From Marsupella aquatica (Eukaryota; Plantae; Marchantiophyta), in the NCBI GenBank assembly GCA_973895155.1, contig OZ316899.1:11471775-11535774 (forward strand): DNA of 64,000 bases, read 5' to 3'. The notes beneath the pieces were generated by a model, which saw only the letters and a list, made by a program, of their open reading frames with translations, was not told the DNA's origin and searched no databases. The translations under genes and the position numbers were made by a program. Shown piece by piece: positions 1 through 43,800 of this stretch. Each line of letters opens with the position of its first letter. The stretch's first letter is position 1.

Positions 1-21
1 CTCCGCAAGGCCGCACCATAC

Positions 22-1275
22 ATGATGATCCGCGGACATCTGCATAAGGAAGGCGTCGATGGGAAAATCCACAAATGCCTAGACTATAACGAGACGATCA
101 TTGTCATGCGAGCTATGCACAAGGAAGAGGCAGGAGGACACTTCGCCCCGGTCACCACGGCTCACAAAATCTTGGACGCAGGTTATTGGTGGCCCACGCT
201 TCATCACGACGTAGCCCATTTTATCCGAGGGTGTGACTTATGTCAGCGCGCAGGCAAACCTCGCAGATCGGGTAATCATCCTCTAACTCCAATCTTTCCC
301 CTTGCCCCGTTTGAGAAATGGGGCATCGATTATATCGGACCATTCACTCCGGTAACCCGAGGTCGACGTTGCCGGTACATCCTTCTGGCTATCGACTACT
401 CGACTAAATGGGTCGAGGCCCGGGCAACGGTCAAGGATGACGCGGCCACCACTGCCAGGTTCCTGTACGAACAGATCTTCACCCGCTTTGGACCTCCCTT
501 GGAATTAGTCAGCAACCGTGGGACTCATTTTTTGAACGAAACGGTGGAAAAACTGACTGACCGTTACCTCGTCAAGCACAGGAAGACTACTCCTTATCAT
601 CCCAAATGTAACGGACTAGCAGAGCGGGCTAATGGCATTGTAGGGAAAATCCTCAACAAAACCGTGGCAGCCCACAAAACAGACTGGGACGACAAGCTTT
701 TCGCGGCGGTCTATTCGTACAACTTGGCGTTCAAGACCACTACAAACCATAGTCCGTATTTCTTGGTATTCGGACAACATGCGCTAGTACCCGTCGAGTT
801 CGAGGTCGAGACCCCCCGGGTGCGCATCCGCCACAGACTATCGGAGGCCGCTAGTTCATCCGATCGAGCATATAAGATCGACAGTCTAGAAGAACACAGA
901 TTGTGGGCATCGCAACGCGTGGCAGCTAAGCAAGAAGCAACGAAGAAACAGCATGACAAGGGACTGCGCCAGGTGGACATCACTGCGGGAGATCTTGTCC
1001 TTCTGTACGACAGTAGGTACATGTACTTTCCAGGAAAGTTACACACACGCTGGCTAGGACCTTTCGTTGTCCAGCAGATGTACCTGAACGGATCCCTACA
1101 ACTATCGACGTACGCCGGCGACCTCTTTCCCAATCGAGTTAGTTACGATCGTGTGAAGAGGTACTTTCATCAGGACAACGAGCGTAATGATGTTCGCGAG
1201 GACGCTTCACACTTAAGTAGGGAGCTATGTGACACGGGTAACGTGTCACTTGACCGAACCCAGGTCGTAGATTAG
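22..1275 (+). pseudogene. Ty3/Gypsy integrase (C-terminal end of pol), family A, probably inactive
   Basis: HHCC zinc finger (H..GGHF..C..C), rve core WGIDYIGP / LVSNRGTHF / NGLAERAN, and GPF motif (KLHTRWLGPF). The second catalytic Asp is changed (SDRG>SNRG). The ORF runs through the PPT and stops about 48 nt inside the LTR. Confidence 0.93.
1215..1227 (+). promoter_or_regulatory. Putative polypurine tract (PPT) of family A
   Basis: AAGTAGGGAGCTA lies immediately before the LTR-start TG at 1228. The tract is imperfect. Confidence 0.6.
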
Positions 1276-1341
1276 GACTTATACGGTCATTAGGACCGTA
1301 GCCATAGCATAGAATAGCACGTATAGCCGTCAAGTTGCCAT
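1228..1341 (+). repeat. First 114 bp of the family A 3' LTR (inverted copy of 8677-8782)
   Basis: TGTGACACGGGTAACGTGTCACTTGACC... matches the reverse complement of 8677-8782, apart from an 8-bp indel and a few substitutions. Confidence 0.92.
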
Positions 1342-1865
1342 CTAGCGCCAAAAAACCGGTCGTCGTATGTCGCACCCCTACCCTGGGCCTTAAATCCGGG
1401 TTAGTGTCGTGGTGCGACCTCGACCACCAGTAGGGGTGAGGGTTCGGGCAAGGAGGTGTGTAGTGACCTTCAATAGCCCTAAGTCGGGCTAAGCCGCTAT
1501 ACTTACTGGTATAACACTCGCATAATTCGTACTTGTCATAGGTATATTTATTTTCCACCGCTGGAATTTTCCCTCAGTTAGTGACGCGGACTAACTCCCG
1601 ACTTGGGGCTTTTCAAGCCATCGACGTGACAGGACCTTGTGACATGCAATGAGCGGCAATCCCTACCATTAGTCCGCACCCGATACGTCCCTTAAAATGG
1701 TGCCTTTGCCCGGACAAAGCATACACACAACACTAGTTACTCTCAGAAACATTAAGGGGAAAAGACTACATTTACTCAGCGAAGCATCAGTTTACATGGT
1801 TGACTCGACTTCAAAGGGGGTCAGCAGGCCCAACGGCAGTCGATGCCCAGTCTCTACGAGGCCCT
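1338..1865 (-). repeat. 528-bp duplicate of the family A LTR end, spacer and partial PBS (copy of 4923-5450)
   Basis: Direct repeat at offset 3585. About five transition differences seen by eye. Confidence 0.95.
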
Positions 1866-4838
1866 TTGGGAGTTCCTTGGGTTCCTTTATTACGGACGGA
1901 ATCTCGGGGCTCCAGGTAACCTTTTTCTTTGCGGGAGGAGTGACGGTTTGAGTAGCATTTTCCTCGGGTATACCGGGTAAGGCCAGCCGGCCAACTGCCT
2001 TCGTAGGGCTCACCCTGCCGGGGAATGCTCCGCCCATTGCCGCATCATCTCCTTCTGGTTTCCCGGGTGCTTCGATTTGGGCCGCTGGTCTGGGCTGGTT
2101 CAGAATATGGGCTTCTCGGACGGCATTTACCCCGAAGACTTCCTCTTCATCCAGGCGAGAGATTAACTCCACCATATTCACCTCTTCTTCTGAGATGTCC
2201 TCCTCCGAGTCACATTCTTCGGGTCCCTGGGGCGTCTCGCCCTGGTAGTCTTCTTCCTTCCAGGACACCGTCGTAGTCGGGTTACCGAATCGTAATTCCT
2301 TCCTTCCCCAGTCGGTAACGACTCGGGCACCGTATAACCAGGGTCTGCCCAGCAGTACTGGATAAGAAGAGGGTCGGACGGGTCGCATCACCAGGTAATT
2401 TAGAAAGAACTCGAGGCCTCCAATCCACGTGGATATCTTGGTTAACGTCCCCAGTGGCATGATCCTGGCGCCGTTTGCTAACCGAATGGCGCGCGCCGTG
2501 GGTTGATAAGATGTATATCCCAACCTTACGGAAGTGTCCTCTGTCATGATGTTTACACCGGACCCGCCGTCTATCGGTACAAACCGAACAGTACAGCCCG
2601 CTATCTCGATAGAGACTTCCAGCGCTCCTAAGTCCTGGTAAATCATCATACAGTCGGCTAAGGTGCTTACCCGAGGTAGCCATCGCCTCCTCTTTCCTAT
2701 CAGCATCTCCTTGAGTTGTTGCCTATACTTCGGGTTATCCTGCAATAGTTGTCCGACAGTGGCTGTGGCTACACAGTTCTGAACATCCTTTTTGATGTCG
2801 TATTGGTTAGACGGTGGGGTCGCAGATTTTACTGCTTCTGCTCCCTTGACTTCAGTTTGCAAGGCAGTCTCAGCTTCCTCGGCTTCTTCGGCCGCCTTAG
2901 CATTGGCAATATCCTTCTTAATGGCTTTCTCGTGCTCTTGGGCTTCATAGGCTTCCAATTGCTTTTTGACCAGTTCCTCTACTCGTGGGTAGAATAACTT
3001 CGGGTTATCCCGCTGGTAGTCTTCCAGCTCGTCTGGTTCCATTGGACTATTCTTGTCTGCGACCGCCTCTTTCTGCTGGGCATCCTTCCGATCTCGTTCT
3101 TTGTACTTATCCTTCTTGCGGGATGATCGGGTAGAAACGCGATAGCACTCGTCGTCCGCGTGCGTTCCCGTTTGCTTGACTGCCTCTATGAGATCGATCC
3201 ATTTGGTGGAGTCGTCCTGCCATTCCATTGTTACCATTTGTACTACTGCATCCGTAATTGGTGGGGCCGCAGGTTGAGCAGCTCTGACGGCGCCGGCCTT
3301 CGCGGCTAGCACCAAGGGGCAGTTTGACGTGGAATGTGCTTCGGTTCGACAGACCTGGCACAATGGAAGCGCTCTCCCATCCCCTTGCTTCCTTTGCTCC
3401 ATGCACTCTCGGGCAAAGTGACCAGGTTTCTCGCAATTATAGCAAACCGGGGTCCGCCAAACTCCGGGTTTAGGTGGGATACTTGGATTGCTGACCATCT
3501 GGGGGCCACGCCCATTTACCGGATACGGATAAGGGGTATGGAACCCTGGATTGTGGCCGCTTAGGGTGCGAGGTCCCGTCATACTCATCTGGAACACCGC
3601 CTCACCTGGATCCTCGAAGAAGTACTCCATCGTGCATCCCTCTGGTTCGGACTGTCCGGGCTCCAACTCCATCTGGTGCACGCGAGTGTTCCATCTTGGA
3701 CATTCTTGCACCACATGTCTCGATTGATAACACTTGGAGCACCAAGCATGCGCTCGGATTTCCGGTGGTTTCTTCTTGTCCGGAGGTTTTTCCGCCAAGT
3801 GCACCGATAGTGCCTTCAGCCGGTCTGTGATTTCGTTCAGCTTTTCTACCTCCGCAGCCTTTGGGTCCGTGGTGACGACTTTGGCTCGCGGTTTATGTTT
3901 ACCCGTATCTGACCGTGATCCCTTCTTTCTTCTGTGGTCTCGAGACTCTGACTCGGTCTCGCTGGAGGATGAGCCAGTTGACGTCGGGCTACTGGACAGG
4001 GAATTACTAGACTCAGAATCAGAGTCTGACAAAGAGCTAGTCCGGCCCTTCTTCTTATATCGTCATTTCTTCTTCCTCTTCTTCTCGTCGTACTCAGAGT
4101 CGGAGTCGCTGAAGGTATGATACCTCCTGCTCTTCTTATGTTTGGTCCTCCTATTAAGCTGAGAGGCGTAGTGCAATTCCCTAAAGGATTCGGCACTATC
4201 AATTGCTTGTTGTAGAGTGGTGGTCTTCTTTTCTAGCACCGAGAACGCCATCCTCTGGGGTAGCGCGTTGACGAACCATTTCCTCAGCAGAGAGTCATCT
4301 GGCTTAGGCCGAATCTTGGCGGCAACCTTCTGGAACCGCTGAAGAAATTTGTGAAGTGAGTCATGCTTACCCATTTGCATTCGCCCGATTTTTGACAGGG
4401 CCCGAGATTCGATCCCGACGGGCCGAAATTCTTGCAAGAACGCCGTTTGGAACTGGCCCCATGTACAACCCGGGGGTTGTAAGTTATACCACGGGCGCGC
4501 TTCTCCTCGTAGTACGCCTGGAAGAATGGTTAGCTTAATGGCTTCCTCACCATTCGCCTTGGCCGTGGCCTCGAACTCAGCTATCCATTCATCAGGGTGG
4601 TCTGTGGGTCGTCCCTTAAAGGGTCGATAGTGAAACCGGGATCGCTGCGACACGTTCTGAGCCGCAGGGGGCCGCAACGCACCTGGTACCTGCGGGGCTG
4701 GTGGAACCGGTGGAGTTCCTCCCGCGATCCTGCTTGGGAAGCCGAGCTCCCCGCTTCGCCGGTCGCGGTATTCTCTTCCAACCTTGATGCTCCGTCCGGT
4801 TGTTGTAAATACGCAGAACGTGACCGGGTAAGGGGCAT
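1866..4838 (-). pseudogene. Family A gag + aspartic protease, truncated before RT
   Basis: MPLTRS start, gag core (FKGRPTDHPDEW..LRGEARPWY), CCHC knuckles (CYNCEKPGHFAREC) and protease IDGGSG..LLGRPWL. One frameshift near 4680 and an in-frame TGA at 4063-4065. Fused at 1865/1866 to LTR sequence. Confidence 0.92.
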
Positions 4839-4916
4839 GCCCCTTCCTTCACGTCGAGTACAAAATCAAAAGTTACTAGCTCACTACACGTCTCCACTCG
4901 TAAGGCAAAATGAGTG

Positions 4917-4935
4917 CCCCCTCCATCTAGCGCCA
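4917..4935 (-). promoter_or_regulatory. Primer-binding site, tRNA-Asn-like (TGGCGCTAGATGGAGGGGG)
   Basis: Lies between the LTR end and gag. Near-complementary to the 3' end of plant tRNA-Asn as I recall it (one mismatch). The same motif recurs at 40854-40872 and 47968-47985. Confidence 0.8.
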
Positions 4936-5596
4936 AAAAACCGGTCGCCGTATGTCGCACCCCTACCCTGGGCCTTAAATCCGGGTTAGTGTCGTGGTGC
5001 GACCTCGACCACCAGTAGGGGTGAGGGTTCGGGCAAGGAGGTGTGTAGTGACCTTCAATAGCCCTAAGTCGGGCTAAGCCGCTATACTTACTGGTATAAC
5101 ACTCGCATAATTCGTACTTGTCATAGGTATATTTATTTTCCACCGCTGGAATTTTCCCTCAGTTAGTGACGCGGACTAACTCCCAACTTGGGGCTTTTCA
5201 AGCCATCGACGTGACAGGACCTTGTGACATGCAATGAGCGGCAATCCCTACCATTAGTCCGCACCCGGTACGTCCCTTAAAATGGCGCCTTTGCCCGGAC
5301 AAAGCATACACACAACACCAGTTACTCTCAGAAACATTAAGGGGAAAAGACTACATTTACTCAGCGAAGCATCAGTTTACATGGTTGACTCGACTTCAAA
5401 GGGGGTCAGCAGGCCCAACGGCAGTCGATGCCCAGTCTCTACGAGGCCCTGCCTCGCACTTGCCCAGCAAGCTCGACTCTGGTTCTCACTCCTTGGTACG
5501 CTCTGACCCTACTCAGGCCGGGACTCCCCGTGCCTCGCCTTTCTTCTGCTGAGATAACTAAGCCTTCTCCCGCTTCCCATCGCGGAAGGGGAAGCC

Positions 5597-5602
5597 TAAA
5601 TA
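5597..5602 (-). promoter_or_regulatory. TATA-like box (TATTTA) of the family A LTR, downstream of the LTR ORF
   Basis: Positionally matching boxes at 19914-19919 (-), 47275-47280 (+) and TATATA at 36059-36064 (-). Confidence 0.5.
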
Positions 5603-5935
5603 CTACCATAGCGGAAGAGAACCGGAGGATACTACCTTCCGGGGTACTACCTACTGACTAACTAACTGCTGACTACCGGTCGCGCTGCACTGACCAGTTG
5701 ACCGTCGACTACGAGTGTGCCAATCGGAATGGCAGCGGCCAAGCCTACTGACAAACTCTAGTACGTTGATGGACTCAATCCTACGTTGGCTGATCCTAAC
5801 TGACCGGCCCTAATTCTTCCTACTGCCGCTAATCGGCGCCTAATGACAGTCATTCTGTCGTTATGCCTAACTAAAAGATGCCGTTGACTTAACCGCTTCG
5901 CGCGGCGCCTGCTTCTACCCTTCGCTAACTACCCC

Positions 5936-8383
5936 TTACGTGTGTGCAGTGGTTGGACCAGGGCTGGTCCCCTTGTCGGGGCGAGACCTCGAGCCGCCTT
6001 GATCAGAGGTGGGCCCAGGTTTTCCCCGCTGGAGGATGAGCAGGGTGACGCGGTCCTGCAAAGCCTTGTTGTCCCGTAATGCTTCCTCCGCCTCGTTTGC
6101 AGCTTCGTCGGCTTCAGTCTGGAGCCGCGCCACCTCCAAGTTGAGCTGGTCGATGGCGTCGCGATGGACCTGGTCCTGCGCTAGCAATTTATCTCGTTCG
6201 GCAGAGAGACTAGCCACCTGCTGTGCTGCCTGCAGGAATTGTTTGTTGAGGTCGGTCAGGCTGGTAACCCGAGCCGAAGATTCTGAGCGTAATTGAAGCA
6301 CGGTGTCGTCCAGCTTCTTGAGTTCGGCCTGCGCTCCGCTTAACTCCTGGGTTAGTCCGTCCCTCTGTTCGACAGTGCGGACTAAATCCTCGCGGCGGGT
6401 CGTTGCCTCCTCCTCGAGGTGCTCTACCAGCATCTGGAGACGCCCGATCTCATTCCCCTTCGCCATGAGTTCTTCTTCCAAGCGGCTGACGATCCGTGGT
6501 TGGTGCTCTAACATGAAGAAGGCTGGCTGAAAGTACGCCGAGACTTGTTGTCCGATGTATGTCGCCAACTCCCCAGACATAGTCTGGCTAAACTTCTGGA
6601 CCAGGTCGTAGGCCATGGTCCCCGGGGCTACTTGGTAGTCCTCCATCCTCTCGGGTACCGGTGGTTCCTCGGCAGGGGCAACGAGCTCCTCCGTAGTCAG
6701 CGCTGGGGAGGGGAAGGTTTCTTCAGGTGGTGGAGGGATTGGGGGTGGTTGTACTGCAGGTAGCGGAGGCTCAATGGAAGGAGGCGGTGGAATTTCCACA
6801 GGGGGCGGTTGCGGAGTATTAGTCGGGGCTTCCGGCTCGGGGTTTGTCCGAGGGACAGTAGTCCGCGTAGTCGGGGTTGCCTCCTCTGGGGCGGGGGTGA
6901 CATTACCCGGGGCTGAGGTGGCCGTATTCTTTCCTCTGGCCTCCCGCCGTGCCTTGTACCAGGCGAGGATAATGGCGATATGACTCCCCAAGTAAGTCTT
7001 CCCTCCAATAGCCATACCACCCTGAGCCCGCTTCAGCTCCCCCGAGAATCTTCGGTAGAAGAATTGGGCCCAGTTTCGTCGTTTGTACTGTTCCACCTGC
7101 ACTATCGTGTAGAGGGAAATCTCGGATCGTGGCTCAATCATGTGTAGGGTAGTCCGTATGAAGTTAAGCCGCTCCATACAGGTTAAGTTGGTGCACGCCC
7201 CCTGCTTGTATCTGTTGTCCGTCTTACCCTCGGGTTTGAAGTGCCGCGGCGTATACTCCTTATCCCGAATTCGGATTTCCACCGGCACCGGCCCGGTTGG
7301 TAGGCCGAAAATTTGCGTTAACCGATGCTCCGTGAGTGATAAGGTCTGCCCCGAAACCTTGGTGGTTGACGCATCAGTGTCAAAATTGGAGATGAACTCA
7401 CAAATCTCCTTCGGCCCGGTGGCGCACGGCCTCCATAGTAAGTGGGCGAACCGCTCCAACTGATGCTCCTTGAGATAGTCCGCATGTTCGAGTTTCTTGA
7501 TCGCGATCAAGACTACCTCGGGGATGCGGATTACCTGTAATAAGTTGGACTTCGGGTTATCCGGGGGCCGTCGGGTCTGGTTGGTCGGGGGGTTTGCCGG
7601 GGCAGGTGCAGGCGCGGCGTCGGTCCGTGTTGATTCGGGGGCCGTCGTAGTCCTTGACCGCTTACGAGGATGCTGTTTGAGTTGCGGACTAGCTCGCTCG
7701 GAACCCGAAGAACACTCCGCGTTGATTACTGGACGGACTTGGGACTGGTTCGGCGGTACTCCGGTGGTCATCGGTTGAGGCGCTGGGGTAGCCCTATCCC
7801 AGTTGAAGGCGTTGGAGCTTTCCCCGAGGAACGTGAGATTACGCGCCGCTTCCCGTTGTCTGCTGATGTCTTCTTGGCGCTTTTCGGCTACGATCTGCTG
7901 GTCTAGGTACCCCGGAATCTTGTCGAACTCCGCTTGAGTAAGCCGCTGGTTGCCCTTCAGCTTAAAGAACTTAGCTGGAACCTCAAGAATCGCCTTTGCT
8001 ACCGATCTAAGCCCTTCCTCGCTGAGATATAGTTCGGTGATGTAGTCTCGCAGCTCGTTATAGCTAGAATCCCTGGTGATGGCTGTCCTTTCGCAATTAA
8101 CCAGTGCTACCTTGGTTACCAGCTTCGTGTACCTTCGTTCGTAAGCGGCTTTCTCGGGGCAAGAGTACCAGTAAGTCTCGGAGAACTTAGCACCTACCTC
8201 GCCAAACAAGGTCCAAAATCCCAAGGCTATGAGGGTCATACTAACCTCGTAGTCCGGTTCGTTGCGTCCACGTTCCCACCTGGCTGGTCCTTTCTCACGG
8301 AGGCCTCGCTCGTCCTGACTAAATCTCGCCACATTCCGCTCTTCTCCCTCGATAATTTCCTCGTAAAGGTTGACTGGATTCAA
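5936..8383 (-). CDS. LTR-encoded accessory protein, 815 aa (N-terminal unknown domain, PMD/Transposase_32-like core, Pro-rich linkers, coiled coil)
   Basis: Uninterrupted ORF. The core EFISNFD..TKVSGQTLSLTEHRLTQIFGLP..NWAQFF..TYLGSHI is homologous to ORFs at 8798, 21124-22122 and 52887. The C-terminus is heptad-rich. The start codon is uncertain (the track uses TTG). The domain call is by motif resemblance only. Confidence 0.85.
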   Translation of the reverse strand: MNPVNLYEEIIEGEERNVARFSQDERGLREKGPARWERGRNEPDYEVSMTLIALGFWTLFGEVGAKFSETYWYSCPEKAAYERRYTKLVTKVALVNCERTAITRDSSYNELRDYITELYLSEEGLRSVAKAILEVPAKFFKLKGNQRLTQAEFDKIPGYLDQQIVAEKRQEDISRQREAARNLTFLGESSNAFNWDRATPAPQPMTTGVPPNQSQVRPVINAECSSGSERASPQLKQHPRKRSRTTTAPESTRTDAAPAPAPANPPTNQTRRPPDNPKSNLLQVIRIPEVVLIAIKKLEHADYLKEHQLERFAHLLWRPCATGPKEICEFISNFDTDASTTKVSGQTLSLTEHRLTQIFGLPTGPVPVEIRIRDKEYTPRHFKPEGKTDNRYKQGACTNLTCMERLNFIRTTLHMIEPRSEISLYTIVQVEQYKRRNWAQFFYRRFSGELKRAQGGMAIGGKTYLGSHIAIILAWYKARREARGKNTATSAPGNVTPAPEEATPTTRTTVPRTNPEPEAPTNTPQPPPVEIPPPPSIEPPLPAVQPPPIPPPPEETFPSPALTTEELVAPAEEPPVPERMEDYQVAPGTMAYDLVQKFSQTMSGELATYIGQQVSAYFQPAFFMLEHQPRIVSRLEEELMAKGNEIGRLQMLVEHLEEEATTRREDLVRTVEQRDGLTQELSGAQAELKKLDDTVLQLRSESSARVTSLTDLNKQFLQAAQQVASLSAERDKLLAQDQVHRDAIDQLNLEVARLQTEADEAANEAEEALRDNKALQDRVTLLILQRGKPGPTSDQGGSRSRPDKGTSPGPTTAHT

Positions 8384-8797
8384 TCAAAAAGGCGAGCGGA
8401 TGGCAGCGTCCGTGAATTCCAAAAAGGTAAACGTGAGCGACTGGCCCGCAGTGCCATCGGCTCCTCTCTTATGGGGGTGCCCGGACGAGCCCGAGCGTGA
8501 GAAGGTCAGGCCGTTTGGTCATTGATAACGAGCTGAAGTCGGCGTCTCGGTCCAAGCGTGATTCTTCTAACTGATTTTTACTCCGCTGCCGCCACCGTAC
8601 CTCGGTCGCGCGTAATAATCCCTTTCCTGAACTTGTAATTATTCGGTTATCTTAACCTACTCCTAATCTAATCATAATGGCAACTTGACGGCAATACGTG
8701 CTATTCTACGCTATGGCTAATGACCGTATAAGTCCTAATCTATGACCTGGGTTCGGTCAAGTGACACGTTACCCGTGTCACAATAATACCGCTGGCA

Positions 8798-10661
8798 ATG
8801 CAGCTACATTTTGCACAAGATGAGGATGCATACTTCACAGCCATGCAGACCAAAAAGTATCAAGGTTTCATGGCCGGATCGGGCTTAGAGACCTTTGTTA
8901 GATTGCCATGGCAGAGGCCGGAGATGCCAGACTCAGACTTGCTAGAATTTGTGGGAGCATGGGACCATGACTCCAACTCGACCAAGATCTATGGGAGAGA
9001 CTTCTATCTCACTCCCAATGTGATTGCCAAAGTATTTGGCTTGCCAATGGGCAACAAGGCTAAGGTAGAAACTCAAAAGAACTTGCCGGACAAGGAGTTT
9101 AGATCGTTCCCCAGGCCATCAACAAAGAATGGCTTCTTCCGCAACACCTGCAACCCGCATATTGGAGAAATGATCAATTTCTTGTGGGTGACAATGCATT
9201 GCAACTTGCCAAGGCCGGAGATCGGCAAAGCACAGGTTAATCTGGCAGAGAGGCCAGACCCAAGCCGGGACTACAATGGGTACCTCCTCAACCAACTAAG
9301 GAAGATATTGAAGGAGGAACAACAGGTGATTAGCCAAGGGAGCGTGTCCGGCTTGGTTATCACATGCCGTTGTTGTGCCAATATGCCCAGAGTTGAATCT
9401 TTGCCCCAATCCTTCCCTTGCAGGCAAGAGCGCCAGAAGAGGAGTCGGAGCCAAGGCCGGCAGCAAAGAAGCCCGACCTGCCCGACAGCCCCACAATAGC
9501 TCAGATCTTTTGGCAGACGCCGGAACCCGGGCCAATGCAGCAACCGGCCATAAAGAGCCTTCTACAGATACTGAATAAGGAGAAGGCAACATTAGCACCA
9601 GAGGTAGTGGTAGCGGGCATCGCAAGAACCGCTAGAGGAGAACCCATGGCCGGGGCCATGAAGAGAAGTAGGTCGGAAAATGAGTTGGGAATGTGGATGT
9701 ATGTAGGAGCCACCAATTTAGAAACCAAGGGACATGGACCCAGGGTTCCCAGTCCTGAGAAGGTGAGCAGAGGCTGGGTGCGGGAGGCGGAAGAGCAAGC
9801 CGCACGTATGCATAGTCCCCGGCAGGATGTCGGATTTGCGGCTAGATGCCGGGTTTGCGGCTAGTCCTAGAGAGGATCCGTAGGCACCAGGATACCCGGA
9901 AGCCGAGGAGCACGTGGAGGAATACCACAAGGACTTGGGTTATGGGTCGGATCGCTCGGTACCAGGGGTGCGGACCTGTGGCCATTTCATCCTCACACTT
10001 CCAAGAGTGGTGCGTGGGGATCCACAACACCAGAAAAACCCGAAGTCTCCCCCAATGGACATACCTCCTCCAAATTACCATGAGAGACAACAGGCCGATC
10101 ACAAGTTGTAGCAGCAATTCAGTGACCTGGAGGAAGCAACCCTGGCCAAGGAGAAGGATTTTCCAGGCGGAGGATGGTCGTAGGACATTTGGTGTCTTGC
10201 AAGGACTCAAGCTGGGCCTTTGCCCACGTTTGATGAGATACGGAGGGCGGCATGGGAAAGAAGGCTGCGTTGGGAGATGTCGGCATCTCCTAACCACTCC
10301 ACCTATGCACATTCTAGAGTCCTGAAGTATGGGAGGATGTGCAGACTACTCGTCCTCGACATCTTTGGGGTAGAATTGGAGACGGGGCCTGTCCACAAAG
10401 AGATGTTGGAGAAAATCTGGTTGGAGGGCGCACTGGCCTTGGAGAGGATGAAGAAGGAGGAAGTCATCCGGCGGCTTAGAGAGAAGGAAGCCGAGGCTGG
10501 AGATTTAAAGGCGGTCAAGCAGGCCCAAGACAAGCTGCTACAAGTTAGGAAGCATGAGATAAGCATCATACAGGGGCAACTGGCCCAGACCAAGGAGGAT
10601 TTGGCCAAAGCCCTCAAGGAGAAGGAGAAGTGGAAGCAGGAGCTGAAGAAGACAGAGGCAG
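8798..10661 (+). pseudogene. Family B LTR-encoded protein, core and start of coiled coil (frameshifted)
   Basis: LLEFVGAWD..TKIYGRDFYLTPNVIAKVFGLP core. The segments VPGVRTCGHF and VIRRLREKEAE are shared with family C. Confidence 0.82.
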
Positions 10662-14080: not shown

Positions 14081-14085
14081 GGCAG

Positions 14086-17617: not shown

Positions 17618-17621
17618 CTTG

Positions 17622-19238: not shown

Positions 19239-22200
19239 TGTCACGTCGTCGGCTGCGGCCTTAACTCAGACTTCAACTTAGACGGGCACATCCCTCGTAA
19301 ATCTGAGGGTTTGGGCAGGAAGGGAAGCACGTAATGCACCTTATTCTCGTAAACTAGCGCTAAGTGCGCATACTGCTAAATACGGACACCTCCTAGGTAT
19401 GGTTTGTGTTCCGCCGCCGGAACGTACCTTAGTCGATAGCAGGATCGACCCCGGCTTAAGGGCTTCTAAGCCTTCGTGCTGTCCGCCTTCGATCCGGATT
19501 CGATGATACAGGTCCTCAACCCGTGCTCACAACCACTTACCCGTAGGCTGCACCCTGTGCACGTCTCGGGTAGTGCATTCGGCCTGGCGCTGCCACCCAT
19601 ATACGAGAAACCCACACACATACACGCGCACATGCATACAATCTCGATTTACACGAAGGAAAATGATGGGAAAGGATTTTACTACAAAGGAAACATATGC
19701 GTACACTTAGTTGACCCGACAGCCCCGGAATGAACAGGTTCAAGGCCGAGGGTGCACACTACAACGGAGCCAGGCTCCGCACTCGCCCGACGAGCTTAGT
19801 CCTACCCCCTCCCCTTGGTACTCTTTCATTCCCAGAGGTCGGGACTCCCCGCACATACCGCGGACGTCCAACTCTGCAACTAAAAACCCCCCTGCCTCTA
19901 CCGAGGGGTGCACTAAATACTAAGGGACGAGGGATGGGGTGTCCTCTCGCCAAAGATTCGCTGACTAAGGTCCTAACTAAGCTGACAGTCAGGCCGGAAA
20001 ACGGCTGTGTCTTATTAGAAGATCCTAATCTACGCAAGCTGGACAGCATGGCAGCACTGCTGTACCTAAGGCAGGTGCCTGTCCCAAGAGCCTGACTAAG
20101 CCAGTCCTAATCCTAATCTATTCCTACTCCGCTGCTAATGCCTGGCACACTTGCCAGAGCCGCCCGAATGGGAGCGGCCATCCCGCTGCCTTCGAAGCCT
20201 GTCATTGTCCGCCTTGAGGAGCTGGACCTGGTCCAGCAGAGATTCGTTCTCTCGCCTCGCCGCGTCCGTCTCCTCTACTGCCTCCTGACATGCCTCCTCC
20301 AACTGCTGGGCGTCGCTCGTCAGTTTACCCGCCAGCTGGTCCTGCTTCTCGGCCTTGGTTTGGAGCCGCGCCACCTCAGCCTGCAGCGTGGCTATCTCCG
20401 CCGTGTCCCGCTGGGCCCGTTCCTTGGCCTCCTCCAGGTCTTTCTGCCAGGTGACGGTTTGATTCTTCAAACTGTCAATCTGGTTCCGGAGTCGTGTAAT
20501 CTCGGCCTCGTTCCTAGCTTTGGCCTGTTCGGCTAGGGCGGTAAGAGCGTGCGCCTTTGCTAACAACTCATCGGCGGCTGCAACCTTGGGTCGTAGTTGC
20601 AGAAGCTCAGCCTCTTGAGCCGCAACTTCGTTCTTTAGGTACACGGACTCCACCCGGTACCGCTCTATCCTCTGAAGGGCCTCTGACTGGGCCCGACCTG
20701 CCTTTACTACGGCAACCAACTCCTGATTGAAGAAACAGGCTACCTTCCGGGCCATGAACTCCCCGGTATCCCGGGCAATTTGATGAGAGAAATCTCCCAG
20801 AAGCCCGTTCAAAAATGTACCTGGTACGAAGAGTTCCGGGTGGTCCAGGTTGTGCCTGTCCGGAGTTGGGCACGGGCAGACGTCAACACGCGCGGGGGCC
20901 GGGGCAGTGACGTCCAGCCCTGGGGACGTAACGTTGGAAGGGGCTGGAGTGTCCTCCTGCAGCAATGTCCGGTTCTCAGGAATAGCCACCGGTGGGTCTT
21001 TGGGAGACCCGGGCTCGGGTAAGACCTCCGCCGTACCGACTTCTGTACTTAGCTCGGCTTGTTGGGTTGCATCAACGGTTGCGACAACCGACCCATCCGG
21101 TACCTCCTCGGTTACGACTACAACTACTTGTGGAGGTGGGGTGGGTGAAGCTGGCGTGTCCGCTGGACTTCGGGCCTCGGGTTGGGGCCGTCTCTCCAAG
21201 GCCGGGAAAACCCACCTAGCTGGGACCAGCTTTGTAAGTTGACACGGGGAAGGGTTCGTCGATCAAACCGGGCGTACCACTCAAGAATGATCTTGATGTG
21301 GCTAGCGAAATACGCCTTCCCGCCAATGTACAGCGTCTTCCTTCGCCGCTCCATCTCTTCATGGAATTTCTTAGCGAAGTACGATGCCCACTTCCTAGGT
21401 CGATAGTTCTCGACCTGGATAACTTGGGCGGCGGAGATCTCCCCCCGGGGTTCCATCATGTGGAGGGCGTACCTCTGGAACTCCAGTCGCTCAGTTATCT
21501 CGGGGATGAGGCAGGTCTTCATCACGAACCCGTTGTCCACTGCTCCCTCTGAGGGAAAACTTGAAGATTGGTACTTGGCTCCCTTGCCCCCGGGAGCCCG
21601 TGATTCGACTCGATGGTCACCTTCGGGTAACCCGAAGATCATCTTGAGCCGTTCTTCCGTGAGGGACATACTCCTTCCCCGCAGCCGAGTATGTTGACGC
21701 GCGTCGTCATAATTCTTGACGAACTCCGTCATGTCCTCCCCGTAGTACCTGCAAGTGTTCCAGGGGAGGGAGGCGAGGTGCTTGAATCCCTGAGTCTTCA
21801 GGTACACCGCATGCTTGGGATGGAGGATGTTTTTGTGAATGTTTTCCCCCATGCGGTGCATTGTCACCTTGGCTACGGCTACCATGGCCAACGGTAACCC
21901 GGATGCAGTGGTGTATTCCTTCCTCTTCTTCCCCCGTGACTGGCTCGGGGAAGGTGATACTTCCCCATCCTCCCGATTGGGCCTGGGTAGTGCCACTACC
22001 GTTAGTAACGGGCCCGGGGCGGCCATGGTCACCATGTTGTCTGCCGGGGCCGCTCCTGGGGTCAGAGCAGGGGGTGGGGACGATATAGTGTCGGCCCCTG
22101 AGCGCTTGTTCCTCTGGGCCACCTGGTCAAGGGTGGGGTAGCCTTGTCGTCATCGCTAAGATCCATGGCGTTGATGATGGAGCGTACTTGTGTTGGCTGG

Positions 22201-23247
22201 GCGATCGGTGGTGGGGTTTGGCTAGGCTGCGGCTGAGGCTGAAGCTGAAGCTGAGCCTGAGGTTGCATGGGTACGGGTACGGGTACGGGTATGGGTTCGA
22301 CTGAGTTGGTCATGTTGGTTGATGGCCGAGTTCCCATGAAGCTCTGTAGGTGTTGGTAGAAGTTCTTCGAAGCAAGTGCAGACGACCTTGTCGAACGGGT
22401 AGTGCTGGACTCACTGTTGATGATAGCCCGAACCTGAGCAGGGATGTGGTCGAAGTGATGTCGTTGCAAGTCGATCGTACCCGGGATATTGAAGACCTCG
22501 TCCGGAAGCCGAAGCAATGCTTCCCAGAAACCGATATATTTGTCTCCGTTGAAGAAGTACCCAGATACTTCTGCTGGTCGGTAAAGCTCGCTCTAAGACG
22601 GGTAGTCAAAGTTAAGGATGTAGTGGTGTCGTCCTGCTAGGCGGATGGCTCTCTCGTACTCGCGTTCGATTTCGTATCGGCGCGGGTTGGCGTGTTTTAA
22701 TGAGTCGGCCAAGTGCCTTCTGGTAGATAGGAACTGCATCCAGAATCGAATGGCCGAGCTGGAGAGGATCGTGTGCGACATTCAGAGGAGATAGTAGTGG
22801 CGACTTAGAGCGAACGAGAGAGCTGGGGTCGAAGCTGGCGCGTGGACTGATGGACTGGTGCACTACAAAGGGTTGGCTCCCCTTTTATACCTTGAGGGCT
22901 TGTCGATCCCCCGACGTCTCCTCGACGCCCATAGGCTGAACCGCTCACGCTTGTGGTGTACCGGCCACTCCGCCGGTCTGAGTCAGCGCTTGTCAATGGC
23001 CGCTTCTTAAGTACTTTATACGGACCCGAGGGAGGGGCCCCTCCACACTCGTAACCCGGGTGTGCGAATAGCGACCCGCCGCCAGTCCGAACCTGAATTC
23101 CCCCTTATTGCCTAATGATGTCCTACCCATAATGATTACCTAAATACTGTCGTTATGCTAATAATAGTGGCCTAAGACACTCCTAACGCGCGTGCTAAGC
23201 GTAGTTAGACCGAATCACTCATTAACCGCCGTACCGGTGGCGTCACA
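19239..23247 (-). mobile_element. Family D giant solo LTR (4,009 bp) carrying the whole accessory gene
   Basis: The minus strand reads TGTGACGCC...CGTGACA, with an exact TSD AAATG at 19234-19238 and 23248-23252. Its 3' half aligns with 46273-47954, which is followed by PBS and gag. Confidence 0.93.
20135..22781 (-). pseudogene. Family D LTR-encoded protein (one stop, two frameshifts)
   Basis: ORF pieces 22593-22781, 22062-22517, 21124-22122 and 20135-21199 are colinear with the 815-aa family A protein (EFVKNYDD..MIFGLPEG..GGKAYFASHIKIILEWY; PGTFLNGLLGDFSHQ; coiled coil). Confidence 0.88.
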
Positions 23248-25309: not shown

Positions 25310-25660
25310 ATCCACAAGTCCACCTTTGAAAACTTCTTAGCCCCGGAGAGGCAATCAAAGAGGTCATCCATATGAGATAACGGGTACTTGTTCTTTACCG
25401 TTTGCTTATTGAGGGCCCGGTAATCTGCGCACAATCTCAAAGTACCATTCTTTTTGGACACAAATAGCGCGGGCGCCCCGTAAGGACTCTTACTAGGGCG
25501 AATGAACCCTTGGTCGATCAACTCTTCCAAGGCGTTCTTCAACATAATTCGCTCATTCAGGTTCAAACGATAAGGAGCTTTAGCTTGTGGAGCCAAACTT
25601 GGCTCCAACTCAACTTGGTGATCCACTTCTCTTCGTGGGGGTAAACTTTTAGGTAGCTTC
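25310..25660 (-). pseudogene. Inverted N-terminal piece of chromovirus RT
   Basis: [38 protein letters not shown] is on the minus strand. Its continuation YYQI is on the plus strand at about 25665. Confidence 0.88.
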
Positions 25661-25661
25661 T

Positions 25662-34627: not shown

Positions 34628-35280
34628 TGTCACGCGATTGACATGGGTCTTAACACCAAAAACGTCACTATGGGTGCCAAAACCATCTCCTTGTACCTGA
34701 GGATCACGAAGGGATGTTGTGAATGCCGATAAACACCAGTTTATGCCCTTAACACCAGACTATCATAGCAAGACTCTATCACACATCACCCAAGCTCAAT
34801 CCCAAGGAACCAAGGTTGGGGATCAGATCTGCGCTCATGATAGTTCTGGTGAGAAGGGGTCTTCATATCGGGCCCGTACACACAGGGCCTAGCACTACGG
34901 TGCGCAATAGGTCTATACATATGCTTACTGTCATAGGTATGTTTCTATTCTGCCGCCGGAATGTACCCATAAACCAGTGACTCCTGACTGATTCCCGGCT
35001 TAGGGACTTCTAAGCCATTGCCCCACCACTCTGCCATTCCACTCTCAACAATCAGAGCTATGACAGTCCTCACCCAGCCCGCTTCAATGCACCCGGTACA
35101 CCTCTCAGTGGCGCTGCTAGTTCCATCATACACTCAGATTGCCTCACACACACACACATCCATGAGAGAAATGAGGCCTGAGAGGAAAACTCAATTAGAT
35201 TCAAAGATGTGCACAATAGTTCACTGAGAACACTTGATCCGAATACTAGGGCCGAAGGCTGTCTCCTCCAGATTGTGACG

Positions 35281-35336
35281 TGCTTGCCCTGCAAGCCCCG
35301 TGCTTGCCCTGCAAGCCCCGTGCTTGCCATGCAAGC
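35281..35336 (+). repeat. 20-bp tandem repeat, about 2.8 copies
   Basis: TGCTTGCCCTGCAAGCCCCG twice, then a partial copy. Confidence 0.85.
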
Positions 35337-36564
35337 TCAATCCTGAACCTGAGCCCGGCTCACTCCAGATTGCGACGGCAGATTGGACTCGAACCAATCC
35401 CGTACTTGCCTTGCAAACTCAATCCTGAACTCAACCTCCTTCACTGCACTTCATTCTTGGGGGCACATACAGATCTCACACCTCCAATTCAGAACGTCAA
35501 GTTACGCATGCATAGTTGACTCGACTTCAAAGCTGGTACCAGGCCTAACGGCGATCTACCCCAGACTGCAATGAGGCCCGGCCTCATGCTTGCCCTGCAA
35601 GCTCAGCTCTGGCCATAGATCCCTTAGTGCTCTCCACCAGACAAAGGCCGGGACTCCCCATGGATCACGTAGCCTTGCCAGACTGAACTGTAAATGCTCC
35701 TCCTGCTGCCCCTTAATCAGTACCTCAGCCTCCCTAATGTGCCCACCGCAAATCGAATTGAAATCCTCCCCACAGTTTACAATCACCAATACATCACCTA
35801 TCACCAAGGCTCTGTATCGGGGGAAAAGAACCCAGTTGTGCTGCCCACTAGAAAGAGCCACAATCCAGCTCGCAAACCTAGCAACCCGTTGCTGTGAAGC
35901 TTGGCTGATTACTCCCTGAGTAATAGCACAACCAAGCTCTCCCCAACACGCAGCGTCCAAGTCCAGCCTTGCTTGCACAGAGCTCCTCCCCGCTGCTCAG
36001 TCTAAGTGAGATCACACAACTGAAGTCCCCCCCCCCTTGCCTCTACCGGGGGCTGCTCTATATACTCTCATACTGAGCCCAAATGGGTGGATACTACGCT
36101 GCTGGAGCCCCATCCCAGCCCTAACAGAGCCGCCACTATCTCTAACTACTGAACCCTAACTCGCAACTTTATTTCTATCTCGAATTGGCTATGTACTTCG
36201 GATTCGGCCCTCCTCCATAGTTTTCACGAGCTTGCGCCTCCTCTCCCGATTTCTCTATTTAACCATTTTCTGCGTGGATAGCAGCGTTGGAAGCGGCTTG
36301 AGCTCCTCTTTCCAACGAGGTCAATTATAGCCGATTTGGTCAAATACACAGAGAGTTATGCCCCCGCAACCGAGAGGGGGTACTCACTGCTGCGCTAACC
36401 CGAGTTACATAGCTAACCCGAATTTGGCTAACCTAGCTATCCTATCTAACCCGAGTAGAGCTAACCCGTGGTCTCAGGTTAGGCCGCTACCCGCTATCCG
36501 CTATCCGCTAACCTAGCCTAAGCTGAGCCCGAATCCGAGCTTACCTATGCTAACCTGAGGCCGC

Positions 36565-36740
36565 GCTGACCTGAGCTAAGCTGAAGCCGTGTTGACCTGA
36601 GCTAAGCTGAAGCCGTGCTGACCTGAGCTAAGCTGAAGCCGTTCTTACTTGAGCTAAGCTGAAGCCGTGCTTACCTAAGCTAAGCTGAAGCCGTGCTGAC
36701 CTGAGCTAAGCTGAAGCCGTGCTCACATAAGCTAAGCCGT
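36565..36740 (+). repeat. 26-bp tandem repeat, 6 full copies plus a partial copy
   Basis: Unit GCTGACCTGAGCTAAGCTGAAGCCGT. Confidence 0.95.
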
Positions 36741-37094
36741 GGTTAACCCGAAACTGAAGCCGAATCCGTTAATTCCGGTCACAAGTTAACCCGTCACACT
36801 AATCAGGCCGTATCTTTCTTAATACACCTCCGTTTCTCGAGTGTTTTATATTGATTTTACTCGCCTTGACCAGATCTTTCCAATGCTCTTTACAGATCCG
36901 GATTTGGTGACATATTGAAAGAGATATGGTCGTCGACCACCCGCGACATAGCTTTTATTTCCCTACTCTTAACGCCATGATTGCCCTTATTCTTGCCATC
37001 TTGCTAATTGTTATGCAATATCAATAGCTACTCCTTGCGTACAGCAACCTACTTAATCAGATTACAAAATAAGGACCACGTCATTGGCGTCACA

Positions 37095-40876: not shown

Positions 40877-43800
40877 TGTGGTGCATCCCATGGCTTCCTA
40901 AACCCAAGAAACCCCTCTGCACAAGCCGATTCCTGCAGGTTTCACTCTTGGCGAGGCCAATTTCGTGGCTTAGCGGCATGGGACGTTGCTAACTTCCTTC
41001 TACTACTATTACTATTAACATTTTACTCACATATACTGGACAGATCCTTCATCGGGTCATGAGATACATAGCCGGCCTATTCTAGGCCTTCCCTTGTCCT
41101 CCTCTCTTGGTTTTCCTTTAGGTATGTTTGGATTCCGCCGACGGAATGATCCCCAACTGGCTTGGGTAAGCCGCTAAGACCTCTCTCAGCTCGACACATC
41201 CAACTCTTACTACCTTGCTTACTCCCTTCTTGGTTGATGTGGGCAATCTTCAAACAGGTTAATGCGACACACAAATAGCAAAATGACTCCTTCTGACTGC
41301 GTTATACCATGCACTTGCCATACAAATAGTACTTCTCATATACAAGATCTGCGAACTAAGCTGTGAGGCCAACTCTATTCATCTCTTAGGTATGAGGAAA
41401 CATGACTATACACAAGGGTCACAGTATAACTAACCGAGAGCTTCTTTCACTACTTGATCCCAGCCATGCTGGTGCACTAAAAACTTGCTAAGGAAGAAGG
41501 CCCTGAACTCCCTGCTGCCCAGGTACTTATCTTGGCAATGGATCCGCCTAATTCCTTGCAGCGTAAGCCTAATCTACCTAACTATAATCTACCTATGTAC
41601 AGCGAGGCAGGAGCACAAGTGTTGCTCTCACCAGTGGATCCGCAGTCCCACTAAGCTAAGTGTTAGGGCCGCCTCTTGGTCCTGATCCTAATTCTAAACT
41701 TGGAGATCTGAGCCCGCCCTGCCCACTCACGCCTACTCCCTCCACGTCCGCCCTCCTTAAAAGGAGCGGCCCTTCACCACCGTCATGGCAGCGGTGTCTG
41801 GTCCTCAATGGACGCCCCCAACACTTCCTCCGCAGCCACTACCATAGGTCCGTCCTCTGACAAATTACCTGCTCCGGACCGAGTCAACTCTCCATCTGCC
41901 TGACTGGGTCCACCCTCGGCTTTGGCCTCAGTATTGGCCACGGTCTCTAATACGGCTACGGCCTCCCCTACATGCTCTAGTGGTGGATCCAGTACCCTGG
42001 CTTCATCACCGAGTATCCTGGCCTCGGCTTTGCCATCCCCGCCTTCTAGGGCAGTTGGATCCTCTGCCGTGACCCTGCCTGAGGTTGGTGCTGGGTTTAC
42101 CTCCTTGGTCACGATGGCTTGAGGAGCCGTATTACTCCCTGACCCAGAAGGTTTCCGCTTCTTCTTCTTCCTTGGTTCGGCAGCTAGCCCCTTCCCCTTG
42201 GCACTTACCTCCGGCACCGGTGCAAGTATCTCGGCTTGTCCTTCGGCCAGTACTACTCCTGGCAACTTGGTTGCCCCTATTGGAGTTGGACTTGAGGAAG
42301 CTAAGCACTTAAATACTGCGGCCTGTTTCTTTAGCCGCTGCATTTGGTTGTCGGCTCGCCGCTGTAAGTTCTCCATCTTTCGCGTGCTTTCCTCCAACTC
42401 CTCCCGCAATTCATCCAGGTCCTTGCGCGCCTCCTCCTGCTCCTTCTGGGCTTCCTCCAACTCTCTCTGGGCTTCCTCCAACTCTCTCTGGGCTTCCTCA
42501 AGCTTCTTTTTTAAGGTAGCCCTCTTTTCCTGGGTTGCTCTTAGCTCCTTGTCGAGCTCTGTTACGACCTCAAACTCCATTTTATTCATCTTGGCATAAG
42601 TTTGGTCAAGCTTGTCATCTTTCTCATGGAGGTCGGCCTTGAAGCTGGCCGTCATGGATGCGAGCTCCTATCGTAGCACAATTATTGCCTGATAGGATTT
42701 TCCTAACTCGGCTTCCTTCTGCTCAAGGGCTCCGCGGATATCCTCGAGCTTCCCCTTCAACGCCCTCTCCCTTCTCTGGGTTTCCGCCATGGCCCGGTTG
42801 TTGGCTGCTATGTGGGCCTCCTTTGCATCCCTTAGCTCTTGCTTCCACTTCTCCCTCTCCTTGATCGCATCGGCCAACTCTCCTTGGGTCCGAGTTAGTT
42901 TATCCTTGATAATCTGATTATCAGACTGCCCGGTATCCAATTGCCCCTGCATGATGTTGAGCTCATGCCGCTTAATCCGCAGCTTGTCTTGGGCTTTCTT
43001 GGCCGCCTTTAGGTCTTCTACCTCGGCTTCCCTTGCCCTAAGCCGATGGATGACCTCGTCCTTCTTGCTTCTCTCCAAAGCCACCGCTTCTTCTAATCGG
43101 CGCTTCTCCAACATTTCCCTCTGAAAAAGGGTCCCTGCTGCAACTCCTCCCCAAAGATGCTGAGCGCAAGTTCTCCACACATCTCCCCATACTCCATGGC
43201 TTGTTCTTTAGCATAGGCGGAGTGAGTAGAAGTCATCCACCACAGCCTTTGTTCCCAAGCCGCCTTGCAAATTTCTTCTATCGTGGCTGGAGGGCTGCTT
43301 TGTTTTTCTGCAAGCCGCCTGATGTCCTCTGGCCATTCTCCTCTTGGTAAATCTTTCTCCCTAGCCAGGGCTGCCCCTTCTTCCTCCCTGAGTCATTGCT
43401 AAAATTCCTGTGCCGTCTGTTTTATGCCGTCAAAGCTCGGGGGAGCGACATCTGGTGGGGGAGACTCGGGGCTGCTATGCTGGGTCGGGTCCCCTTGAAC
43501 TACTCTTGGAAGCGTGGGGATGAACCTGCCACAGGTCCTTATTCCTGGAACATGATGGTCCAACCCGTAGCCAGAGTCATCATTGTCGTAGCCGTCTACC
43601 CCCTTCTCCTCGGCTTGGACTACCGGCTCCCCCTGCTGCTCTCCTGGTCTTGCCGTGAACAGGGCCTCACAGATCACGGGTCCTGGTTCCTCCGGCTTCC
43701 ACGTTGATCTCTTCTTCTCCCTGTCGTGACCAGGAGCTTTGGGCTGCTTTTCCTCAGCTTCAGGACTTGAAGCTCCTACATACATTTGGACTCCCGGCTC

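Follow-up and report, generated by a model that had tools for sequence, protein, structure and literature searches.

VANC21, encoded by the Mutator-like DNA transposon VANDAL21, belongs to the DUF1985 family (PF09331), and its structure, including a complex with DNA, has been solved (PDB 9LNK and 9LNJ, both released in December 2025). Short motifs are bound by VANC, which demethylates the transposable elements (TEs) that encode it (PMC5735166). VANC is structurally similar to the host proteins MAIN and MAIL1, and MAIL1 and MAIL2, which resemble the DUF1985 domain of VANC, oppose H3K27me3 at motifs (10.1101/2024.09.27.615353). Host plant mobile domain (PMD) proteins were originally described as silencing factors, and the ancestry of retrotransposon PMD-A versus host PMD-B and PMD-C was left 'fully open' (PMC5418596). 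What the extra ORFs carried by plant gypsy elements do has long been an open question (PMC7264820). Here we describe a 64,000-nucleotide stretch of DNA from the liverwort Marsupella aquatica (the window), in which the LTR of a Ty3/gypsy retrotransposon contains a complete accessory gene whose core domain is predicted to fold like VANC21.

Results

LTR elements in the window

LTRs, LTR pieces and an LTR-like relative designated A to D, F and G were delimited in the window (Table 1), where the elements sit nested in other TEs. The start sequence of the A LTR recurs, with 90% identity over 114 nt, after an integrase and a purine-rich tract at 1228, and the solo LTR D is flanked by a perfect 5-bp target duplication. 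Element C contains gag, PR, RT, RH and IN domains in order and a primer-binding site (PBS) that starts with TGG; Pfam gave neither a Chromo nor a second RNase H match for C, and no chromodomain match for the integrase of A. By their domain order, tRNA-type PBS and lack of a chromodomain, these are non-chromovirus Ty3/gypsy elements, and the lack of an extra RNase H is consistent with liverwort Tat Z2 or Athila elements (PMC13468544). The idea that a 528-bp duplication marks the transcription start was rejected, as microhomologies at both joints suggest repair.

Table 1. Features of the window (positions counted from its first nucleotide)
Feature	Position	Strand	Remark
Integrase end, purine tract and 114 nt of the A family's other LTR	1..1341	+	inverted by rearrangement
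Element A gag (Retrotrans_gag, zinc knuckle) and protease	1792..4848	-	Pfam
Element A PBS, TGGCGCTAGATGGAGGGG	4918..4935	-	common to C; F with one mismatch
Element A LTR, 3830 bp, TGT...ACA	4953..8782	-	end adjoins PBS and gag
Ten sense-strand TTAG words, candidate binding sites	5583..5983	-	directly downstream of the ORF
TAGTATTTAG, candidate TATA-like element for genomic RNA	5596..5605	-	conserved in A, D and F
Intact ORF, 767 aa, gag-pol sense, ATG at 8239	5936..8239	-	open frame to 8383
Conserved helix, then long acidic predicted coiled coil	6014..6616	-	aligned with D and P0099
Linker, Pro/Thr-rich, low-complexity	6629..6943	-	sequence
Core domain, 201 aa, basic (pI 9.7), predicted VANC/DUF1985/PMD-type fold	6944..7546	-	
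Basic patch PRKRSR in disordered linker, candidate NLS	7652..7669	-	pattern scan
Conserved N-terminal domain, about 120 aa, fold unassigned	7850..8239	-	sequence matches
B, third-family LTR piece	8783..10660	+	5' end lost where A starts
D, solo LTR, 4009 bp	19239..23247	-	CATTT at either side
G, LTR-like relative, 2.0 kb, no ORF	34777..36798	-	no clean target duplication
Element C 5' LTR, 3670 bp	40877..44546	-	coiled coil retained
F, 3' part of an LTR, 72% like D	46346..47954	+	with coiled-coil end, without core

An accessory gene inside the LTR

As the preliminary description had it, the ORF lies inside the LTR: all 767 codons fall within the 3.83-kb LTR of A. Its start and architecture agree with those of the full-length relatives P0099 and P0104, and intact full-length relatives exist at 27% identity. 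The frame is under purifying selection, with 24 of the 40 listed family variants silent versus 11.9 expected (none of 5,000 draws reached 24) and with neither stops nor indels among the listed variants. The ORF is an accessory gene under selection in a clade of Ty3/gypsy retrotransposons, and its four-part architecture is conserved. Genes that overlap retroviral LTRs include MMTV sag, HIV nef and foamy virus bel, which likewise place coding sequence in U3 where reverse transcription duplicates it; their products are unrelated to the LTR protein, and here the LTR encloses a whole 767-aa gene, which solo LTRs retain.

The N-terminal domain of A has no Pfam match; it matches those of D (E 0.002) and P0007 (E 4e-13), and the D copy matches P0032 and P0039. 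For the helix and coiled-coil region Pfam gives weak coiled-coil matches, every one below cut-off, and a two-copy prediction scored 0.27 against a mark of 0.32, which is evidence neither for nor against a coiled coil pairing. Where A carries its basic patch, D has KKRK at the equivalent position. Transmembrane segments are absent: the peak 19-residue Kyte-Doolittle mean is 1.45 in A and at most 1.2 in D and B, the usual transmembrane threshold being 1.6. The NLS-like patch and the lack of a membrane segment in the sequence are consistent with a nuclear protein.

The ordered motifs previously noted in the core were recovered in A, D (21262-21873, minus strand) and B (8798-9355, plus strand). 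C, as had been claimed, keeps only the second half of the core (44113-44391, minus strand), and lacks the first half and the N-terminal domain. The claim was not confirmed for F, taken by assumption as the LTR piece at 46346-47954 since that letter had been left undefined: when the whole window was scanned twice with profiles in six frames, the core was found in A, B, C and D only. The interval originally given was 6950..7500, and the start of the core lies some 45 nt past its 7500 bound. Identity between the cores is 40% for A and D (E 7e-40) and 29% for A and B (E 2e-12), with A and C matching at E 4e-8, and all six pairwise scores lie 17-75 SD above those of 500 shuffles. The D ORF, homologous to that of A, is broken (ATG at 22781; one stop in the N-terminal domain and two frame changes), and the B frame breaks directly past the core.

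Relatives and sequence families

A profile search with the core returned 81 relatives, and eight of the nine organism-named clusters are from liverworts. The resemblance to PMD and Transposase_32 domains that had been proposed is not borne out by Pfam, in that HMMER, run to E 10, matched no window protein to PF10536 or PF20167. Nor was PF09331 matched by any window protein, and because none match these three families the window proteins are not Pfam members. With the threshold set at E 0.01, PF10536 matched none of the 81 relatives. Transposase_32 (PF20167) matched three at the same threshold (best E 1.6e-7, 31.8 bits), all scores being below the 45-bit cut-off, and six of the 62 aligned sequences matched it over the same stretch at E up to 2. 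P0079 aligns with positions 15-158 of the 177 in PF20167 (E 1.6e-7), and a core profile built without the six bridging rows recovers P0079 over positions 31-196 (E 2e-6), shuffled and reversed controls reaching at most 5.7 bits. These sequence matches point to a detectable, transitive homology of the core to Transposase_32 over the same domain. DUF1985 matched one of the 81 relatives, P0052, at 23.1 bits versus a cut-off of 35.1, and this match drops to E 190 under a richer profile. In the Atlas, 9 of the 30 matches for A fall in DUF1985 clusters and 2 of the 30 in PMD clusters, both at 0.93, and D matches PMD at 0.90; 20% of the members of the Atlas PMD clusters carry PF10536.

In word-index protein searches none of 323 and none of 7874 candidates was confirmed; a third such search confirmed one of 7990, itself a query member. 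Scans of viral and metagenome contigs confirmed 0 of 43 and 0 of 56 pattern matches. PDB sequence searches gave nothing below E 0.1, and a search of sequencing runs listed no RNA run containing the sequence.

Predicted fold of the core

An AlphaFold2 model of the core (62 sequences, no templates) reached a pLDDT of 96.5 and a pTM of 0.92; with four sequences the pLDDT was 40 and fold matches were meaningless. In a structure search of 48,161 PDB chains, only VANC21 bound to DNA (9LNK_A) reached Z 5, with Z 8.0, which is middling by the tool's own scale, an rmsd of 4.0 and 10% identity over 186 of 201 residues; the next chain had Z 2.7. Foldseek likewise ranked 9LNJ_A first (probability 0.96, TM 0.55, although E was only 0.075), the next probability being at most 0.03. 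The core thus modelled very probably shares the VANC21 / PMD-type fold, the wider label being supported because VANC shares its fold with MAIN/MAIL1. The PMD-type resemblance first suggested therefore stands at the level of fold, through VANC21 and DUF1985, and not as a Pfam PMD or Transposase_32 match. As the core is modelled to fold like the DNA-binding VANC21, it probably binds DNA, and likely that of its own element, but a shared fold by itself demonstrates no function. A zinc-binding site was considered and rejected, since the conserved C397, H300 and H468 provide just three candidate ligands. Basic residues are also conserved, namely R371, R405, R410 and R419 (numbered from stop to stop).

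TTAG words and candidate promoters

TTAG, first spotted by eye, ranks first among 4-mers across six non-coding parts of the LTRs (68 vs 30.7, z 6.8; the 95% maximum of the null is 3.8) and is strand-biased, with 68 TTAG to 17 CTAA. Four further TTAG words lie within 200 nt of the start of the A LTR. The ORF-less G holds TTAG in a tandem array (36531-36737; eight copies of a 26-bp unit). The words are enriched and clustered, yet common to all families. The distance between TAGTATTTAG and the end of the LTR is 650-680 nt in each of A, D and F; if this sequence is the TATA element for genomic RNA, the ORF would fall in U3. The TTAG clusters adjoin two candidate TATA regions on their upstream side.

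Composition and traces of methylation

CpG observed/expected ratios are 0.90-1.08 in the three A segments and 0.86 in D, versus 0.39-0.83 in the other 20 of the 24 segments, a contrast confounded by insertion age (C reaches 0.71 when CpG in either LTR is counted). All five differences between the copies of the 528-bp duplication fall at CG or CHG, and 16 of the 32 transitions among the A-family variants are at CpG, compared with 26% expected. Judged from these substitutions, A-family DNA is evidently still methylated.

Discussion

The predicted fold is common to the core and VANC21 over 186 of 201 residues, and the likeness extends further: both are TE-encoded accessory proteins that combine a globular domain with a coiled coil and variable regions of low complexity, and short motifs, here the candidate TTAG words, cluster in the non-coding parts of the element in both cases. 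They differ in that identity is 10-11%, the window proteins have no DUF1985 match, the carrier is a Ty3/gypsy LTR rather than a VANDAL (MuDR) DNA transposon, and VANC is described as dicot-specific whereas the named relatives of the LTR protein are from liverworts. The LTR protein also has an extra N-terminal domain, TTAG is not family-specific, and activity here is only predicted. By sequence, the nearest Pfam family is Transposase_32 (PF20167) / Athila ORF1 (PF03078), although the window proteins score nothing and their relatives stay below its 45-bit cut-off. Athila elements are likewise non-chromovirus gypsy elements with a sense extra ORF and a predicted NLS (PMC11728184), but their ORFs are internal, between pol and the 3' LTR, and not inside the LTR. 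PMD proteins (PF10536; PMD-A of Ogre/Tat, PMD-C of MAIN/MAIL1/MAIL2) are linked through the similarity of VANC to MAIN/MAIL1 and through the Atlas clusters at 0.90-0.93. PMD-A is also retrotransposon-borne; against this, PF10536 matches none of the relatives and the PMD clades were described from angiosperms (PMC5418596). PMD-C proteins have a chromatin role at motifs, yet their direct DNA binding is not established (10.1101/2024.09.27.615353). As a model of function, the transposon-encoded VANC is closer than host MAIN/MAIL1.

We tentatively propose that the LTR protein is a nuclear, DNA-binding accessory factor that keeps its own LTR promoters open and counters silencing of its own family. 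The ORF, in U3, would be transcribed from a promoter near the 5' end of the LTR, so that both LTRs, and solo LTRs, could supply the protein in trans. The basic patch would bring it to the nucleus, the core would bind short motifs, for which the TTAG clusters on either side of the ORF are the candidates, and the coiled coil would provide multivalent binding. Binding would then exclude or remove repressive marks, either DNA methylation, as with VANC, or H3K27me3, as with MAIL1/MAIL2; in bryophytes, PRC2 represses TEs (10.1101/2022.10.24.513474). The support is indirect, from the TTAG clusters that flank the ORF and from the slight CpG depletion. Against anti-silencing, the copies keep mutating at CG and CHG, TTAG, unlike the VANC motifs, is not family-specific, and host PMD proteins were first described as silencing factors.

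Foamy virus Tas is the role model for a transactivator of LTRs, and the LTR protein could similarly bind DNA and recruit transcription machinery to the LTR promoter without acting on silencing marks. The same VANC21-like fold and TTAG evidence would serve such a role, as would the position of the clusters just upstream of both candidate TATA regions, and the copies do remain methylated; we nevertheless think it unlikely, since repressive chromatin is what the two fold members of known function act on, and VANC hypomethylates even copies whose transcription is not activated (PMC5735166). Integration targeting or nuclear import, in which the protein would replace the missing chromodomain and anchor the pre-integration complex, by its LTR ends, to chosen chromatin, could draw on the lack of a chromodomain match in the A and C integrases, on TTAG words near both LTR ends and on the nesting of the elements in the window. 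Gypsy elements commonly nest, however, the protein is not fused to integrase and no fold member has such a role in the literature searched, so that this reading is distinctly unlikely. The 4 to 1 sense-strand bias of TTAG would suit an RNA-level factor that binds UUAG repeats for export, splicing or packaging of genomic RNA, like CERV or Rev, and in Cer1 a coiled-coil accessory protein reportedly exports genomic RNA (PMC10309623); the structural match, however, was crystallised on its target DNA, and we regard an RNA role as very unlikely.

There is equally little to be expected of a self-limiting repressor that controls copy number by compacting or silencing its own family, as first described for MAIN/MAIL1. 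TE silencing is released in MAIN/MAIL1 mutants (PMC5418596) and the A copies are methylated, but the MAIN/MAIL1 effect was later traced largely to MORC1 protection from Polycomb (10.1101/2024.09.27.615353) and the family has many divergent copies. Least credible, and largely refuted, are the readings as an env-like protein for membranes or movement and as a captured relic without function. Being 3'-terminal on the genomic RNA, the gene does resemble env-like ORFs in position (PMC7264820), and each of the copies in B, C, D and F is either broken or truncated. An env-like protein was nonetheless rejected for want of a membrane segment (hydropathy peaks of 1.45 in A and at most 1.2 in D and B), and purifying selection and the intact full-length relatives at 27% identity also count against this pair of readings.

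If the protein acts as the anti-silencing factor that we favour, each LTR or solo LTR might form a module of protein and target that protects the family in trans, with ORF-less, motif-rich LTRs exploiting it, and this retrotransposon-borne lineage might represent an early branch of the superfamily that gave rise to PMD, Athila ORF1/Transposase_32 and VANC. The clade would then be one of bryophyte gypsy elements, and the gene a sequence-specific anti-silencer lying beside its own target motifs. This extended reading is doubtful.

A VANC-fold protein in this position links Transposase_32-like ORFs to the one superfamily member with a solved DNA complex and known anti-silencing activity, and its carrier, a liverwort-type retrotransposon, shifts the origin of the fold in TEs closer to the first land plants. 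Protein and candidate sites sit together in one 3.8-kb unit. Were the protein an anti-silencer, it would be a plant LTR retrotransposon factor of a sort not found described in the literature searched, and solo LTRs would not be inert.

Core copies and LTR layout

In the window, plant retrotransposons with gypsy, copia and LINE domains lie nested in one another, and positions 6950-7500 form part of the open frame of the Ty3/gypsy element A. The preliminary description had read the same ordered motifs in LTR sequences A, B, D and F, with the latter part kept in C. The motifs do align in order across A, B and D, and their second half in C: tblastn of the A protein against the window matched D over residues 286-476 (40%, E 7e-40), B (29%, E 2e-12) and C, which keeps the second half of the core (E 4e-8), and all six pairwise core scores among the four lie at 17-75 SD over 500 shuffles. 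LTR piece F, as identified here, has no core and retains just the coiled-coil end. Six-frame scans with profiles of four and later 56 sequences found no fifth copy in the window.

The start and end of the A LTR bracket the ORF, which thus lies inside the LTR. Translation from the first ATG (8239) gives 767 amino acids, and this start is equivalent to those of D and of two relatives of full length, P0099 (906 aa) and P0104 (787 aa). A, P0099 and P0104 share the order N-domain, disordered linker, core, linker, helix and coiled coil; the N-domain, with conserved counterparts in D and liverwort relatives, has no match in Pfam. In D the ORF is broken; its N-domain, core and coiled coil all match those of A. 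The sequence TAGTATTTAG is conserved in A, D and F, 650-680 nt ahead of the LTR end. After it comes a conserved block shared by A and F, and this arrangement suggests a genomic-RNA promoter downstream of the ORF and an ORF located in U3. TATAAA occurs twice upstream of the D ATG and is not found upstream of the A ATG. Ogre, Retand and Athila elements often carry extra ORFs with PMD, Transposase_28 or Athila ORF1, which two sources place in the internal region (PMC6317226, PMC7264820). Searches of the literature covered, in which subscription journals are thinly represented, turned up no description of this system (an ORF within a plant LTR, a VANC-like retrotransposon protein, the Pfam links).

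Coordinates of features in the window
Feature	Position (strand)	Observation
Open frame of A	5936-8383 (minus)	
N-domain of A	7850-8239 (minus)	120 aa
LTR start, A	8782	TGTGACACGGG
Second copy of LTR start	1228	same start; after integrase gene and purine tract
LTR end, A	4953	GCGACA; PBS, then gag beyond
PBS to LTR end, A	4936-4952	17 nt
PBS to LTR end, F	47955-47967	13 nt
PBS to LTR end, C		4 nt
Solo LTR D	23247-19239	CATTT at both sides
Rearranged parts of A	1-1865, 4923-5450	
LTR-like piece G	34777-36798 (minus)	2.0 kb; conserved blocks common with A, D, F
B and piece 14260-16075	8783-16075 (plus)	collinear with C LTR
Chromovirus pol	25186-27660, 44547-45018 (plus)	
Copia element	54663-60151	189-bp LTRs
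Second, related copia	start near 62000	
0.9-kb repeat	16714-17619, 45277-46207	copies 87% alike

Neighbouring elements

In element A, the protease is followed by a 528-bp, 99% identical copy of the element's own LTR end and PBS, beyond which lie the inverted start of the other LTR and the integrase; both joints show 4-5 nt of microhomology. G has inserted into element C between gag and protease. It carries a TTAG-rich tandem array with a 26-bp unit and may be a non-coding parasite of the system. B and the piece at 14260-16075 probably belong to a single LTR into which 3.6 kb carrying a LINE-type ORF were inserted. Element C interrupts the chromovirus integrase, and the chromodomain lies beyond C. 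The copia LTRs are identical, so this insertion is very recent; its long frame has stops. The second 0.9-kb repeat copy adjoins LTR F, apparently in place of its 5' part.

Predicted fold and relatives

The AlphaFold2 model of the core (62 sequences, pLDDT 96.5) was searched against 48,161 PDB representatives. The sole match over Z 5 was VANC21 on its target DNA (9LNK_A; Z 8.0, rmsd 4.0, 186 of 201 residues, 10% identity), the next reaching Z 2.7, and Foldseek ranked the sister entry 9LNJ_A first (probability 0.96, TM 0.55, E 0.075). The AlphaFold and Foldseek comparison proposed in the preliminary description thus led to VANC21; the absolute scores are moderate, and we count the match because it spans the whole domain, stands apart from the next one and agrees with what the sequence and embedding searches indicated. 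MAIN and MAIL1 are structural homologues of VANC according to three sources (10.1101/2024.04.02.587720, PMC13547354, 10.1101/2024.09.27.615353). Given this homology and the fold match, the core probably is homologous to, and works like, the VANC/PMD/Transposase_32 superfamily.

The likeness to the PMD and Transposase_32 families originally suggested stood at the superfamily level, through the fold and distant relatives, whereas direct Pfam scans of the window proteins were negative. Judged by sequence, the core is a member of none of the three Pfam families (VANC/DUF1985, PMD, Transposase_32). Word-index protein searches returned no relatives; a full HMMER search with a four-sequence profile returned 81 clusters (37 at E ≤1e-10). 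Names were found for nine of the 26 clusters looked up out of these 81: seven Calypogeia fissa, one Riccia sorocarpa and one Orobanche minor. The predominance of liverworts among these names suggests a bryophyte host for the window. At scores that all stay below the curated cut-offs, Transposase_32 matches three of the 81 (best E 1.6e-7) and DUF1985 one (E 8e-5); PMD matches none. In the alignment of 62 sequences, made up of three window proteins and 59 of the 81 matches selected by coverage, Transposase_32 is hit more often than any other family (6 of 62 at E ≤2). With six bridging rows left out, a profile picked up the strongest Transposase_32 match at E 2e-6, but the DUF1985 protein only at E 190. 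In the ESM Atlas, unnamed streptophyte clusters are nearest to A (0.95), followed by DUF1985 and PMD clusters (0.93); D gives PMD 0.90 and DUF1985 0.89.

P0056, P0057, P0062 and P0080 form a subgroup among the relatives. A DDE_Tnp_4 fragment precedes the core in P0056 (Riccia sorocarpa) and P0057, hinting that the domain may also be carried by Harbinger-type DNA transposons, or else that gene models were fused.

Selection and proposed function

The gene is under selection. Core variants were taken from contigs of four runs in three studies (30 to 1546 contigs per run), and one run may be the source of the window itself. Among the best-supported 40 of 55 sites, 24 variants are silent in the A frame, against 11.9 expected if those changes fell at random positions (none of 5000 draws as high); none creates a stop in this frame and no indels are listed. 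Four other frames give 7-8 silent variants; the mirrored frame gives 21, together with one stop.

With a pI of 9.7 the core is basic, PRKRSR lies ahead of it, and the A protein has no membrane segment. Of all 4-mers, TTAG is the most enriched in non-coding LTR sequence (six parts from four families; 68 versus 30.7, z 6.8; null 95% maximum 3.8), densest in the first 200 nt of the LTR and directly after the ORF; in G, which is related and ORF-less, it lies within an eight-copy tandem array. By its observed/expected ratio, CpG is undepleted in A (0.90-1.08) and D (0.86) and depleted in the remaining 20 of the 24 segments (0.39-0.83). VANC recognises short motifs that have been amplified across non-coding regions of the transposon encoding it, and takes off methylation (PMC5735166), MAIL1/MAIL2 sit at motifs and counter H3K27me3 (10.1101/2024.09.27.615353), and bryophyte TEs are repressed by PRC2 (10.1101/2022.10.24.513474).

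Several observations speak against an anti-silencing role. Copies of A go on changing at CG/CHG, where all 5 differences between the duplicated stretches lie, 16 of 32 transitions among A-family variants are at CpG, insertion age accounts for part of the CpG contrast, and TTAG lacks both family specificity and strand symmetry. Transactivation is an unlikely reading of the protein, and integration targeting somewhat more so; a role on RNA and self-repression are each improbable, and an env-like protein or a relic is very improbable. By analogy with VANC, we tentatively favour, at slightly under an even chance, a protein that would bind the element's own LTRs and thereby counter their silencing.
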